Assembly (NCBI GenBank): GCA_044892525.1
Contig: CM097885.1
Span: 32,552,001 to 32,616,000, forward strand
Length of the DNA: 64,000 nt
Reading direction: 5' to 3'
From: Schmidtea polychroa
Taxonomy: Eukaryota
Shown here: positions 5,026-18,874 of the stretch, piece after piece
How positions within the stretch are numbered: the stretch's first letter is position 1
How the letters are laid out: each line of letters begins with the position of its first letter
Notes under the pieces: model-generated
Told to the model about the DNA's origin: nothing
What the model saw: the letters and a program-made list of their open reading frames with translations, nothing else
The model's database searches: none
Program-made: the position numbers and the translations under genes

Positions 5026-6339
5026 AGTAGAGAGAAGTGTGCTCCATGACTCATCGTTTTTTGTCATTTTTTTTGCACTACCCCCCCCCCCCCCCGATGA
5101 CTCAGCGCAAAACAAAGACATATGACTCATCGAAGACTCATCCATAGCAACCGTGGTAACTGGATCAAGGTCATATGACTCACCCATAGCAACCGTGGTA
5201 ACCATGGTAACTAGATCAAGGTCGCATTAATCAAATATTTAAACAATGACATGTAAACAAATATTTAAATAAATACATTTAAACAAATATTTAAACAAAG
5301 ACATTTAATCAAATATTTAAATAATGACATGTAAACAAATATTTAAATAAATACATTTAAACAAAGACATATAGACAAAGACTCATCGATGACTCATAGT
5401 TTAAATAAGAAGTTATTTTTTTTGTGCACTATCCCCCCCCCTTTGTATGACTCATCGATGACTTTTTTGAACAAAGACCAATCATTTATTTTTAAGACAA
5501 AGACTATCACACACGATTAGAACGATGACTCAGGACTCCACTAGAACAAAGATGTTATTATCAAAATTATTATTATTATCATTATTATTATTATTATTAT
5601 TATTATCATTATTATTATTATTATTATTATCATTATTATTATTATTTTCAATGTAATATTATTATTTTATTATAATTATTATTATTACTATTATTATTAT
5701 CAAATTAATATTATTTCAAAATATTATTTCAAAGTAATAAAAAATAATAATAAAAAATAAAATAATAATAACAAAGTAATAAAAAACATTACCATTTCTG
5801 ATATAATTTTCTCCATAAAAACATATTCTTCATAAAAAAATTCATAAATTGATTTCATAATTTCTAAAAAACATTATAATTAAAAACATAATAATTAAAA
5901 TTTACTTTTTCATCCACGAGCATTTTGAAAAAATCATAGAGTATATGTAACGTCTATCCAATCAGAATACAGATAGGATAGAGAAATATACACACACATA
6001 CTCTATGCTTTGTACTAAAATGATGAGTCATCAATGACTCACATAGTAACAAATAATGTCTTTGTTACTCATTGTCTTTGTTTAATTTACACGTGACATG
6101 AGTTCAACATGTCTTTATAATAATAATATTTTTGTGAATAATAATAAAATTAATTAATTAATTAATAATAATAAAATTAATAATAAAATTAATTAATTAA
6201 TAACAATTATAATAAAATAATAATAAAAAATAGTATTACTTTGAAAAATAATAATATTATTTTGAAAATAATAATAAAATATATATATATCAAATAATTT
6301 AAATGCAAATCAATATAATAAAATGGTGGGTCCCTCAAA

Positions 6340-6760
6340 AAATCTTTTCAAACCTTATAATTCGAAAGGTATTTCAGAGGTCTATCTAATGGTCATATCT
6401 TCGAATGGTATAACCTTCAAAGGGTCATAAACCTTCGAATTTTTTCAAACCTTATAATATATATATCAAACAAAAGGAAATTCAAAAATGAGTATGATGG
6501 TCCAAGTTTAAAGAGTCCAAGGTTCAAATTTTGAAAACCTTATAATATACATATCAAACAAAAGGTAATACAAAGATGAGTATGATGGTCCAAGGGTCGA
6601 AGGTATATGGTGGGTCAATAACCTTCAAAGGGTCAAAAACTTTCGAACTTTATAATATACATATCAAACAAAAGGTAATACAAAGATGAGTATGATGGTC
6701 CAAGGGTCAAATTTTTCAAACCTTATAATATACATATCAAACAAAAGGTACTACAAAGGT
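6340..6760 (+). repeat. Degenerate tandem repeat in left arm (mirror at ~16780-17200)
   Basis: CTT(A/T)ATAATATA(C/T)ATATCAAACAAAAGG...GATGAGTATGATGGTCCAAG recurs near 6450, 6537, 6648 and (truncated) 6720. Confidence 0.8.
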
Positions 6761-7254
6761 AGTCATCGCTGACTTTTTATAACAAAGACAATGACTCATC
6801 ACTTTTTAAAACAAAGACATCTGTTTTCAGAATGACGCGCCCATGGGATTTATTATTATTAATATCAAAATTATTATTATTATCAATATTATTTATTATT
6901 ATCAATAGTATTATTATTATTTTTATTATTATTAATATTATTATTATTATTATTATTAATATTATTATTATTATTATTATTATTATTATTATTATTATTA
7001 TTATTATTATTATTATTATTATTAATATTATATTCATGTCTTTGTTAATCATGCACGTTTATTGCAAAGTCTTTGTTAATTATGCAAGTGTATTGCAAAT
7101 TTATTAGTCATACCTTGATATTAATTTTACACACATACTCAATCCATTATTATTATTGCAAGTATTAGAGATAAATCTAAAATATTTACACACACAAGTC
7201 TATTCGAAAGTATACATGCTAGGATTACACACCTTAAGGGTAGAAAAATATTTC

Positions 7255-8725
7255 TGAGTGATTGTGTGTGCAATAGCCAAAAATAATAAATTTTATCAAA
7301 TACATGTAAATTTTTTTAAAAATTCTATGTGTGTGTTATTTGTAGAGTGTGAGTGTGTAAAATATGAAATTTTATCAAATACATGTATAAATTTAGGTAA
7401 ATTTTATGAAAAATCTATGTTTTTGTGTGTGTGTGTGTTACGGGTATAGTATGTGTGTGCGTAAATATATGAAATTTTATCAAATACATGTAAATTTAGT
7501 TAAATTTTATGAAAAATCTATGTGTGTGTGTTACGGGTATAGTATGTGTGTGTAAAAATATGAAATTTTATCAAATACATGTAAATTTAGTTAAATTTTA
7601 TGAAAAATCTATGTTTTCTGTGTGTGTGTGTTATGGGTAGAGTATGTGTGTATGTAAAAATTTTATCAAATACATGTAAATTTCTTTAAAAAAAATCTAT
7701 ATGTGTGTTTGTCGTATGGGGTAGAGAATTATTGTATATGTGTGTAAAAATTATATCAAATTTCTTTAAAATTTATGAAAAATCTATATATGTGTGTGTT
7801 ATGGGGTAGAGTATGTGTGCGTAAAAAACTTTTATCAAATACATGTAAATTTCTTTCAAAAATCTATGTTTTCTGTGTGTGCTATGGTTAGAGAATTATT
7901 ATGGGTGTATGTGTGTAAAAATATTAAATTTTATCAAATACATGTAAATTTCTTTCAAAAATCTATGTTTTCTGTGTGTGCTATGGTTAGAGAATTATTA
8001 TGGGTGTATGTGTGTAAAAATATTAAATTTTATCAAATACATGTAAATTTCTTTCAAAAATCTATGTTTTCTGTGTGTGCTATGGTTAGAGAATTATTAT
8101 GGGTGTATGTGTGTACAAATAATAAATTTTATAAAAATCATGTAAATTTCTTTAAAAATCTATGTTTTCTGTGTGTGTGTGTGGTATGGGTAATTATTAT
8201 GGGTGTGTAAAAACTTTTATCAAATACATGTAAATTTCTTTAAAAAATCTATGTGTGTGCTATGGTTAGAGAATTATTATATGTGTATTTGTGTACAAAT
8301 AATAAATTTTATAAAAATCATGTAAATTTCTTTAAAAAATCTATGTTTTCTGTGTGTGTGTGTGTGCTATGGGGTAGAGTATGTGTGTGTAAAAAACTTT
8401 TATGAAATACATATAAATTTCTTTAAAAAATCTATATGTGTGTTTGTCCTATGGGGTAGAGAATTATTGTATATGTGTGTAAAAATTATATCAAATTTCT
8501 TTAAAATTTAGGAAAAATCTATATATGTGTGTGTTATGGAGTAGAGTATGTGTGTGTAAAAAACTTTTATCAAATACATGTAAATTTCTTTCAAAAATCT
8601 ATGTTTTCTGTGTGTGTATGTGTGTGTGCTATGGGGTAGAAAATTATTGTGTGTGTATGTGTGTAAAAATATGAAACTTTATCAAATTTCTTTAAAATTT
8701 ATGAAAAATCTATGTTTTTGTGTGC
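7255..8725 (+). repeat. TG-rich minisatellite in left arm (shorter mirror at ~15540-16265)
   Basis: The unit core TTTTATCAAATACATGTAAATTT...AAAAATCTATGT...TGTGTG repeats throughout. Three near-identical 99-bp units at ~7830-8130 produce the repetitive ORF 7794-8210. Confidence 0.9.
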
Positions 8726-17400: not shown

Positions 17401-17999
17401 TATTCACAAAAATATTATTATTATAAAGACATGTTGAACTCATGTCACGTGTAAATTAAACAAAGACAATGAGTAACAAAGACATTATTTGTTACTATGT
17501 GAGTCATTGATGACTCATCATTTTAGTACAAAGCATAGAGTATGTGTGTGTATATTTCTCTATCCTATCTGTATTCTGATTGGATAGACGTTACATATAC
17601 TCTATGATTTTTTCAAAATGCTCGTGGATGAAAAAGTAAATTTTAATTATTATGTTTTTAATTATAATGTTTTTTAGAAATTATGAAATCAATTTATGAA
17701 TTTTTTTATGAAGAATATGTTTTTATGGAGAAAATTATATCAGAAATGGTAATGTTTTTTATTACTTTGTTATTATTATTTTATTTTTTATTATTATTTT
17801 TTATTACTTTGAAATAATATTTTGAAATAATATTAATTTGATAATAATAATAGTAATAATAATAATTATAATAAAATAATAATATTACATTGAAAATAAT
17901 AATAATAATGATAATAATAATAATAATAATAATGATAATAATAATAATAATAATAATAATAATGATAATAATAATAATTTTGATAATAACATCTTTGTT

Positions 18000-18860
18000 C
18001 TAGTGGAGTCCTGAGTCATCGTTCTAATCGTGTGTGATAGTCTTTGTCTTAAAAATAAATGATTGGTCTTTGTTCAAAAAAGTCATCGATGAGTCATACA
18101 AGGGGGGGGATAGTGCACAAAAAAATAACTTCTTATTTAAACTATGAGTCATCGATGAGTCTTTGTCTATATGTCTTTGTTTAAATGTATTTATTTAAAT
18201 ATTTGTTTACATGTCATTATTTAAATATTTGATTAAATGTCTTTGTTTAAATATTTATTTAAATATTTGTTTACATGTCATTGTTTAAATATTTGATTAA
18301 ATGTCTTTGTTTAAAAAATGATGAGTCATACATACTTTAATAATGAGTCAGTTGGCTTTGTTCCAAAAATGACGAGTCATATGACCTTGTTAATAAAAAT
18401 AGAATGACCTTGATGAGTCATCTTCTTTGTTTAAAAATGATGAGTCATCGGGCAGGATCAACGGTGATGAATCATATGTACTTTAATGATGAGTCATCGT
18501 CTTTGTTTAAAAATGATGAGTCATGTGACCTTGTTACTAAAAATAGAATGACCTTGACCTATTTACTAAAAATAGAATGACCTTGATGAGTCATCGATGA
18601 CGTCATGTGACCTTGTTGCTAAAAATAGAATGACCTTGGCCTAGTTGCCATGGGGACCACCGTTGCTATGGATGAGTCATGCGACCTTGATCTAGTTACC
18701 ATGGTTTCCACGGTTGCTATGGGTGAGTCATATGGCCTTGATCCAGTTACCACGGTTGCTATGGATGAGTCATCGATGAGTCATATGTCTTTGTTTTGCG
18801 CTGAGTCATCGGGGGGGGGTAGTGCAAAAAAAATGACAAAAAACGATGAGTCATGGAGCA
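18000..18860. promoter_or_regulatory. Subterminal array of AP-1-like, nuclear-receptor-like and Sox-like motifs (shorter mirror at 5040-5550)
   Basis: About 16 TGAGTCA by hand count, one TGACGTCA, about 7 TGACCTTG and many CTTTGTT within ~860 bp. Confidence 0.5.
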
Positions 18861-18874
18861 CACTTCTCTCTACT

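Follow-up and report, generated by a model that had tools for sequence, protein, structure and literature searches.

A mobile family of giant palindromes with Maverick/Polinton-type ends in Schmidtea polychroa

The 64,000-bp window of the Schmidtea polychroa genome analyzed here contains a member of a mobile family that has inserted independently dozens of times, with about 60 elements carrying the window arm. We think it probable that the window copy inserted recently and belongs to a non-autonomous Maverick/Polinton subfamily with a genome in the form of a giant palindrome. This judgment applies jointly to the whole explanation that we favor, in which a palindromic, non-autonomous Polinton would be served by a helper in trans, one arm would template the other, termini would be captured from other elements and length would be constrained.

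Results

A first-pass annotation of this DNA had described a self-complementary element with arms at 5026-12105 and 12532-18874, a spacer of ~430 bp and GATATC on both flanks. Self-BLAST and global arm-to-arm alignment bear out this description: the inverted repeat makes up 96.9% of a 13,849-bp element, its arms are separated by a 426-bp loop, and the termini are, as that annotation had given them, AGTAGAGAG...CTCTCTACT, with an AG/AGT-repeat end motif. The features are as follows.

5020..5025, no strand: left 6-bp target-site duplication GATATC, self-complementary (flank letters; 6-bp rule from 8/8 relatives)
5026..12105, + strand: left arm of the giant inverted repeat, 7,080 bp (self-BLAST, global alignment)
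5026..5124, + strand: terminal segment common to a 16.7-kb pPolB/integrase class, presumed to serve as origin and integrase site (probes at 5026-5050 and 5099-5124)
5047..5547, + strand: sub-terminal short repeats, TGA(C/G)TCA-rich
7280..8736, + strand: 91-99-bp satellite array (shorter mirror copy at 15527-16247)
10148..10645, + strand: RING-finger (C3HC4_3) ORF, 165 aa stop to stop (PF13920, E 3e-10)
12052..12105, + strand: left arm tip, which forms with the right tip an imperfect inverted repeat that is fixed and passed on from copy to copy
12106..12531, no strand: loop (spacer), 426 bp
12532..12582, - strand: right arm tip, imperfect partner of 12052-12105
12532..18874, - strand: right arm of the giant inverted repeat, 6,343 bp (self-BLAST, global alignment)
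13983..14480, - strand: mirror copy of the RING ORF
18320..18672, - strand: sub-terminal block, 353 bp, confined in the window copy to the right arm
18875..18880, no strand: right 6-bp target-site duplication GATATC

The arms differ by 27 substitutions in 5,960 aligned columns (99.5% identity), mostly at indel edges and arm tips, and at just 3 of 3,683 sites in non-repetitive tiles. Blocks of 735 bp (satellite) and 350 bp are confined to the left arm, and the copy number of the satellite array varies both between arms and between copies. The 353-bp right-arm block was probably lost from the left arm of the window copy, as most relatives read align through it in both arms. The loop of the window subgroup contains a 45-bp tandem duplication at 12120-12213, the loop region folds as one stem (z -17.9), and an Rfam search of 5000-12700 returned 0 matches. 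TGA(C/G)TCA occurs at 35 sites in the element versus 2 in the remaining 50 kb of the window. The element falls within the length range of Polintons (about 13-25 kb), whereas its arms, at 7,080 and 6,343 bp, exceed the terminal inverted repeats of tens of bp to about 1.5 kb that define that group.

A C3HC4 RING ORF, which the first-pass annotation did not name, is the sole coding cargo and occurs once in each arm. The ORF lacks the start methionine present in a database relative (P0003), and its first in-frame ATG would yield 108 aa. No tblastn match to two pPolB, one capsid and one integrase fragment was found in the element, and no ORF reaches 200 aa, the longest being 165 aa. The element thus contains neither the pPolB and retroviral-type integrase nor the capsid, ATPase and protease module of autonomous Polintons, as the annotation had claimed for pPolB, integrase, capsid and ATPase, the last judged from the ORF list. 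Searches with the RING protein found two near relatives without names in the protein database, none among longer proteins and none in phages, and Atlas matches were to generic RING domains only, under 0.9; we take an IAP-like role to be a matter of resemblance only. In a sequencing run that we guess to be RNA, the contigs over the RING region are variants of a larger RING lineage, an observation with no bearing on expression.

Because GATATC is its own reverse complement, a target duplication cannot be proven from the window alone, and the proof comes from relatives. All eight relatives read, a non-random choice of those that matched the terminal 200 bp best and had both ends listed, are flanked by distinct, non-palindromic 6-bp duplications, which supports insertion of a non-autonomous Polinton-type element as a unit. 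Both the 6-bp duplications and the end motif are those of Mavericks/Polintons. A terminus probe gave 508 matches (260 + 248; reversed control, 0) and the loop gave 41 matches at 95-100%. The terminus search proposed in the first-pass annotation therefore uncovers a family rather than a one-off rearrangement, including copies with different target duplications and the same loop. The window terminus was absent from the viral and metagenome contig collections searched.

On C1, 34 of 61 exact RING-probe matches lie in convergent pairs, and close neighbors are in +- orientation 17 times and on the same strand once. Among 39 paired termini (C1, up to 210 Mb), 14 enclose RING in both orientations and 7 a single RING without the helper polymerase; 13 enclose the helper pPolB motif (11 once and without RING, 1 twice, 1 with RING) and 5 enclose neither. 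Loss of one RING copy in 7 of 21 RING-bearing elements indicates that perfect symmetry is not required. Most of these elements span 10.5-17.6 kb (33/39 paired termini; 20/21 RING-bearing elements), and the near-native length proposed for the window copy is supported. Short derivatives also exist (7.0 and 8.9 kb from paired termini; probe pairs at 1.7 and 5.8 kb), which weakens any argument for a size constraint. Two relatives, E5 and E8, have new, shifted loops, with arms that are again 100% and 99.8% identical.

Could fold-back chimeric long reads have produced false palindromes in the assembly? Short-read contigs cross the junction of loop and right arm by just 26 and 29 letters, below our 31-letter standard. 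Nevertheless, matching non-palindromic 6-bp duplications close both ends of each relative, large indels distinguish the arms, many loci share the loop and its imperfect tips, and E8 (27.5 kb) has a second palindrome nested inside it with its own duplication. We regard an assembly artefact as scarcely credible.

The 16.7-kb class is likely, from shared terminal sequence and motif content, to be the helper of the window element. It has the same terminal ~100 bp by two probes, both of which match exactly at both ends in six of the seven copies listed, and all seven contain the pPolB motif. An integrase motif is present in both full-length copies that could be checked (integrase matches were listed up to C1:18.45 Mb), and a 7-kb short copy within that range has none. 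In the copy at C1:16.905-16.922 Mb, the integrase motif is on the same strand as pPolB, 8.05 kb away. In the other, at C1:9.628-9.645 Mb, the order is pPolB(-), integrase(+), pPolB(+) with an unchanged length of 16.72 kb, the arrangement expected if one end had been replaced by an inverted copy of the other. A window-type terminus lies 1.5-3 kb from 19 of 32 helper pPolB motifs, and 13 have no listed terminus nearby. Hence, a pPolB-bearing class with the ends of the window element exists in the same genome, as the first-pass annotation had anticipated. ATPase, protease and capsid HMM scans matched no helper-class copy among the best 126-150 of >2,000 candidates scored, and an ATPase motif used as a probe gave two matches, both at unrelated sites. 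This class, the free-standing pPolB palindromes and the larger RING lineage described below are known here solely from motif and probe positions. Two other assignments were ruled out: the 16.7-kb class does not consist of pPolB palindromes throughout, as only one of seven listed copies has two pPolB motifs, and E8 is not the autonomous parent, as the pPolB in it is part of another palindrome, nested in a TAT microsatellite.

The helper class does not, however, appear to be the template of the window arms, because it lacks three inner arm probes (window 5523, 6325 and 6575), of which the probe at 5523 is specific to the window lineage, and because the RING gene was not found in it by probe (1/13 helper-pPolB terminus pairs contains RING). 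In proposing a snap-back defective Polinton, the first-pass annotation is thus supported as to a non-autonomous family inserted as units with helper-type ends, but not supported in deriving the arms from the end of that autonomous element. By their probe matches, the window arms are instead members of a larger RING-palindrome lineage with other ends. This lineage gave 964 matches; of the first 100, 38 form convergent pairs spaced 1.9-8.0 kb apart, suggesting several fold-back or loop-shift events. No non-palindromic or direct progenitor of the arm was found, the nearest relatives being RING palindromes with other termini.

These data also bear on a simpler copy-back, in which the arm would be the end, RING included, of an autonomous parent Polinton from another family. 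Of the 11 listed loci of one RING variant, 4 have an integrase motif about 9.8 kb away on the same strand, which makes RING a cargo of integrase-bearing elements; among the first 100 matches of the nearest RING variant, 62 are unpaired; and the copy at C1:9.63 Mb is a true copy-back of the helper class. By contrast, the sole pPolB-bearing class found with window termini lacks the arm markers and RING, only 1 of 100 nearest-variant RING matches has a window-type terminus within 12 kb, and in two short-read runs a single unbranched contig leads from the loop into the inverted arm, a weak point. On balance, we consider this origin improbable.

Palindromy extends beyond the window family. The genome contains about 200 pPolB-only palindromes with long open polymerase frames, which fold at an embedded third-type terminus; of 71 pPolB-B probe matches past the first 2 Mb of C1, 42 form inverted pairs; and inverted pairs recur in three unrelated Polinton lineages. 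Together with similar lengths across families, these palindromes could be read as an incipient multipartite virus, like Vesanto virus, in which pPolB-only, RING-only and perhaps other palindromic segments complement one another and are selected together. We judge this very unlikely, as the terminus of the pPolB palindromes differs from that of the window family, canonical elements with pPolB plus integrase or capsid in a single unit are abundant, and the RING ORF of the window subfamily lacks its relative's start codon. Moreover, pPolB and integrase occur in one unit in the very class that shares the window ends.

Mutations are also shared between arms. Eleven substitutions, in five of nine elements, occur in a single element only but there in both arms, implying that one arm was copied from the other. 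The same test found 30 arm differences, of which 10 are in the chimeric copy E3 and several are at homopolymer or locus edges; the window copy has no both-arm private variants and 3 arm differences. Arms within an element differ at 30 of 20,374 sites, compared with 1,415 of 322,520 (about 0.4%) between elements. At window 11941 and 12025 and within segment 10900-11670, E5 and E7 share both-arm variants, which were therefore fixed in both arms before those copies spread.

The arms of sex-chromosome palindromes are kept alike by gene conversion, and long chromosomal palindromes undergo hairpin-tip processing. Post-insertion conversion in the same helper-dependent family, with a palindrome that arose once and was tolerated without any role in replication, would equally predict both-arm private variants, and the central deletions and shifted loops of E5 and E8 resemble tip processing. 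Against this model, the low divergence between elements marks the copies as young, leaving little time in place for conversion, the variants common to E5 and E7 predate their spread, and inverted pairs arose recurrently in unrelated lineages. We therefore find chromosomal conversion unlikely and favor copying during replication.

Discussion

In the model that we favor, the 16.7-kb class would provide in trans the polymerase, the integrase and probably the capsid. Strand displacement, protein-primed at either end, would free a strand that could zip into a 6-7-kb stem and regenerate a duplex origin. During replication, one arm could serve as template for the other, which would explain why private mutations as close as about 55 bp to the loop are found in both arms. 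The palindrome may have originated when a strand folded back at the short, imperfect inverted repeat whose halves still flank the loop; this snap-back origin is inferred from the architecture and from parallel cases. The arm body may derive from the larger RING-carrying lineage, with helper ends acquired later, a step that would be easy in a palindrome since copying would transfer any change at one end to the opposite end. Finally, a packaging or replication size constraint might keep these gene-poor, satellite-padded elements near the helper's 16.7 kb.

Intact vertebrate Mavericks/Polintons measure 12.7-24.6 kb (mean 16.9 kb) with inverted repeats of 46-1,447 bp (available portions of PMC8097293 and PMC6431247), and their end motifs include (AGT)2 and (AG)3 types, between which the window ends fall (same portion of PMC8097293). 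The window family resembles them in its 6-bp duplications, AG/AGT-type ends, length and co-occurrence with an approximately 16.7-kb pPolB + integrase class, and differs in lacking core genes and in having repeats of 6.3-7.1 kb, a 97% repeat content and mirror-image cargo. Like snap-back/copy-back defective viral genomes, as presented in the available part of PMC13506859, the element is palindromic over nearly its full length and contains one functional end twice. Apparent helper dependence and the partial copy-back intermediate at C1:9.63 Mb extend this likeness. Unlike those genomes, the window family is integrated, inherited and amplified as a dispersed family, and its arm appears to be a mosaic rather than a plain copy of a helper end.

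Palindromic terminal-protein genomes of phage phi29 have evolved in vitro, and adenovirus genomes of this kind are generated at internal inverted repeats or embedded ITRs. Such products are short-lived, laboratory-made and usually much shorter than the parent, whereas the palindromes described here are natural, near native length and fixed in the germ line. Both systems are protein-primed strand-displacement replicons in which one end is inversely duplicated by template switching, and the pPolB palindromes, by folding at an embedded terminus, parallel the embedded-ITR case. The inverted repeats of Foldback/Galileo elements of Drosophila are likewise very long and internally repetitive, with a small or absent middle. 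Foldback/Galileo elements are cut-and-paste transposase families with 7-11-bp target duplications, however, whereas the window family has 6-bp duplications and Polinton ends. Non-autonomous Polintons were reportedly described by Kapitonov and Jurka in 2006 as internal deletions with ordinary TIRs. Such elements and Tlr1 resemble the window family in having Polinton ends without pPolB and in being moved in trans, although Tlr1, according to the available part of PMC5499653, has its own gene set, unlike the window element. The pPolB-related linear segments of Drosophila Vesanto virus have similar terminal repeats and different genes; this virus is exogenous, with non-palindromic segments and no integrase as far as the available part of PMC8363768 describes it, whereas complete single-unit elements are found alongside the palindromes here. 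Palindromes in a Halocafeteria preprint are 52-nt terminal hairpins, distinct from the window palindrome. We found no description of palindromic Polintons in the literature searched, outside of which lie most subscription papers and Repbase, and 'non-autonomous polinton' led there to Tlr1 only.

Both the replication mode of animal Polintons and their formation of virions are described as proposed rather than shown in the available parts of PMC8097293 and PMC5499653. Amplified palindromic derivatives are fossils of replication intermediates, and predict that a displaced single strand folds on itself, that one arm is corrected from the other, that internal inverted repeats are sites of fold-back and that size is constrained regardless of gene content. 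For annotation, hundreds of near-perfect palindromes of 13-15 kb are hard to assemble, are likely substrates for rearrangement and escape screens that demand both pPolB and integrase. More speculatively, and with considerable doubt, this genome may preserve an entire ecology of snap-back defective Polintons, which are packaged, change helper by swapping termini and partly carry useful genes, as pPolB donors or as host-modulating RING satellites. If so, these palindromes would be defective interfering particles that have become fixed in the germ line of an animal, one step on the way to a multipartite virus, and the near-native length of such gene-poor elements would provide direct genomic evidence of a capsid stage in animal Polintons.

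Structure of the window element

An inverted repeat makes up 96.9% of the window element (5026-18874), with a 426-bp loop between its arms, as the first-pass annotation had described for the palindrome and its spacer. The arms differ from each other by 27 substitutions in 5,960 aligned columns and by three large indels. Short repeats near the terminus, TAT microsatellites, a 91-99-bp satellite and a single RING ORF (PF13920) make up each arm. TGA(C/G)TCA, an AP-1-type site of putative role here, occurs at 35 sites in the element versus 2 in the remaining 50 kb of the window; the assembly that holds the window (G000:C1) is AT-rich and 781 Mb. 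A recurrent ~60-bp motif (window 8792, 8950, 9426, 10811, 12001 and mirror sites) has nine exact cores, all of those in the window lying inside the element, gives no Rfam match, and shows by far the deepest read coverage within the stretch compared with short reads.

Features of the window
5026-12105: left arm of the inverted repeat
12532-18874: right arm of the inverted repeat
27176-31903, minus strand: young Gypsy-type LTR retrotransposon, 267-bp LTRs 99.6% identical, with gag, pol and integrase each in a frame of its own

Palindromes of this kind could be artefacts of fold-back reads, but this is unlikely because matching duplications close the copies, arm-specific indels are present, loops recur across copies and one palindrome is nested in another. 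In two short-read runs from two studies (X1 and X5, either of which may be related to the assembled sample), unbranched contigs pass from the loop into the right arm, reaching only 26 and 29 letters past the junction against a standard of 31. We regard the palindromic structure as almost certainly real.

A mobile family

The terminal 25-mer of the window element has 260 forward and 248 reverse matches in the genome (control, 0). Eight relatives (E1-E8) were picked from the 40 best terminal matches, the criterion being that both ends were listed, and every one (8/8) carries its own non-palindromic 6-bp duplication. E1, E2 and E7 have the window's loop within a full palindrome, bearing out the expectation of related palindromic copies with different 6-bp duplications and the same loop. 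The loop is shifted in E5 and in the outer E8 element, which are still palindromic; E3, E4 and E6 have undergone rearrangement and retain a single copy of RING. Genome-wide, the loop has at least 41 matches at 95-100% (40 of 69 candidates scored), an arm probe at window 6325 has 64+61 matches and thus indicates about 60 elements, and 34 of the 61 exact RING matches on C1 lie in convergent pairs. The window element very probably belongs to a mobile, non-autonomous Polinton family.

Two loci show further rearrangement. At G000:C1:182337087-182337875 two copies of the window loop are inverted relative to each other, the result of a secondary fold-back close to the loop. At G000:C1:235.18-235.21 Mb a 30-kb stretch contains three loop copies together with repeated right arms; here the window family has expanded in tandem.

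A candidate helper and the origin of the arms

Among 39 paired window-type termini (first 100 matches listed, C1 to 210 Mb), seven elements form a tight 16.65-16.93-kb class, which carries a polymerase variant of its own according to a degenerate pPolB motif. This variant has 110 matches in the genome, and 19 of 32 exact matches (C1 to 210 Mb) have a window-type terminus at a distance of 1.5-3 kb. In 6/7 copies both ends match a second terminal probe (window 5099-5124) exactly, and an integrase motif tested on the genome (2,581 matches; control, 0) is found in 2/2 full-length copies within range of the matches listed. A pPolB-bearing class with the element's ends, which the first-pass annotation had called for, is therefore present; it is plausibly a helper, and this 16.7-kb class probably serves the window family in that role.

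The proposal that the arms are the copied-back end of such an element was not supported for this class. None of the probes at 5523, 6325 and 6575 matches any of the seven helper copies exactly, and these probes have too few matches in total to accommodate another class of 110 copies; RING was found in none of three helper copies under a degenerate list, nor at the exact level in the others. Because it lacks the inner arm probes and RING, the helper class did not give rise to the arms. One helper copy of normal length (G000:C1:9628182-9644901) has pPolB motifs at both ends and one integrase motif between, and is apparently a partial copy-back. Helper polymerase and window-type arm markers are mixed at C1:188.02-188.04 and 230.95-230.96 Mb, positions that fit nesting and recombination equally well.

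With ≤3 mismatches allowed, there are 1,823 matches to the RING probe, and the nearest RING variant has 964. Among the first 100 of the latter listed, 38 belong to convergent pairs with spacings of 1.9-8.0 kb versus 3 with same-strand neighbours, and one lies within 12 kb of a window-type terminus. Short-read contigs (90% likeness) are far deeper over 9790-12114 than over the loop, in line with a large lineage that has this inner arm but a different loop. At 4 of the 11 loci listed for another RING variant, an integrase motif is found ~9.8 kb away, and RING is thus ordinary Polinton cargo. From probe positions, we infer that a branch of this RING-palindrome lineage, whose members have other termini, would have taken over the helper's ends to give the window subfamily. 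The RING exon also occurs as a tandem macrosatellite (unit ~1.02 kb) at G000:C1:8.68-8.73 Mb and 9.01 Mb, with about 48 units listed in one array and pPolB motifs flanking it.

Copying between arms

Over six non-repetitive segments in the window element and its relatives, 30 of 20,374 sites differ between the arms of a single element, the chimeric E3 accounting for 19; between elements, 1,415 of 322,520 sites differ. A second, tile-wise test of 24,033 sites found 30 sites differing between arms and 11 element-private substitutions present in both arms (three in E2, two in E5, one in E6, four in E7, one in E8; none in the window copy, E1, E3 or E4), where about zero would be expected given a shared loop junction and no copying. 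The last ~55 bp before the loop are exempt from this likeness: fixed differences separate the left tip from the right, and the window copy, E1, E2 and largely E7 have inherited them. Either fold-back was primed by these tips, as the original imperfect inverted repeat, or they form a zone beyond the reach of correction.

Conversion after insertion could also make arms alike. Copying of one arm from the other during replication is favoured, because the copies are of recent origin and certain both-arm variants occur in more than one element. We lean towards the full mechanism proposed for the window family, with less assurance than towards the helper assignment.

Other palindromic Polintons

Nested in E8 is a 13.4-kb element whose terminus is of another kind. 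It has two divergent pPolB genes, the left frame open for 1,265 codons and the right interrupted, and no long ORF besides pPolB. Its terminus has 205+203 matches in the genome; the first 100 listed include 43 pairs with a median length of 13.8 kb, and a pPolB probe lies in mirror position in 7/7 checkable pairs. This pPolB-only palindrome family numbers ~200 elements of about 13-14.6 kb with their own terminus and is represented here by the following locus.

G000:C2, about 113.032-113.046 Mb (L046:353 to L047:3788): pPolB-only palindrome

At the centre of the nested element is a 1,067-bp piece in which third-type termini, pointing inwards, enclose tandem units of ~510 bp; how many units are present apparently determines the length class of these palindromes. 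The third-type terminus has 107 matches, mostly paired 0.3-2.2 kb apart, several of them at centres of pPolB-only palindromes, which points to an origin by fold-back at an embedded terminus, as happens in adenovirus.

Canonical elements with both capsid and pPolB are also abundant in the same genome (motifs 8.7-8.9 kb apart at five C1 loci), and this speaks against an obligate segmented genome. A distant Polinton family at G000:C1:165719600-165725400 (L063) has a row of capsid, a PLA2-like domain fused to an integrase that is apparently truncated, a zinc-finger ORF and pPolB; a second, inverted capsid gene 13 kb away suggests a further inverted duplication. At G000:C1:9116939-9139482, an inverted pPolB pair has an integrase motif beyond it on each side at the same distance, 6.24 kb, which suggests a larger or nested palindrome.

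Relation to known systems

Laboratory precedents for such palindromes exist in phi29 and adenovirus. A literature search, with Repbase and key papers outside its range, found no report of palindromic Polintons. According to PMC8097293, intact vertebrate Mavericks are 16.9 +/- 1.7 kb long, interpreted by its authors as a size constraint, and their TIRs measure 46-1,447 bp. The window element resembles Mavericks/Polintons in its ends, duplication and size but differs in its genes and TIR length, and is thus a non-autonomous Polinton derivative, one that would work in the way of the snap-back defective genomes that PMC13506859 defines.
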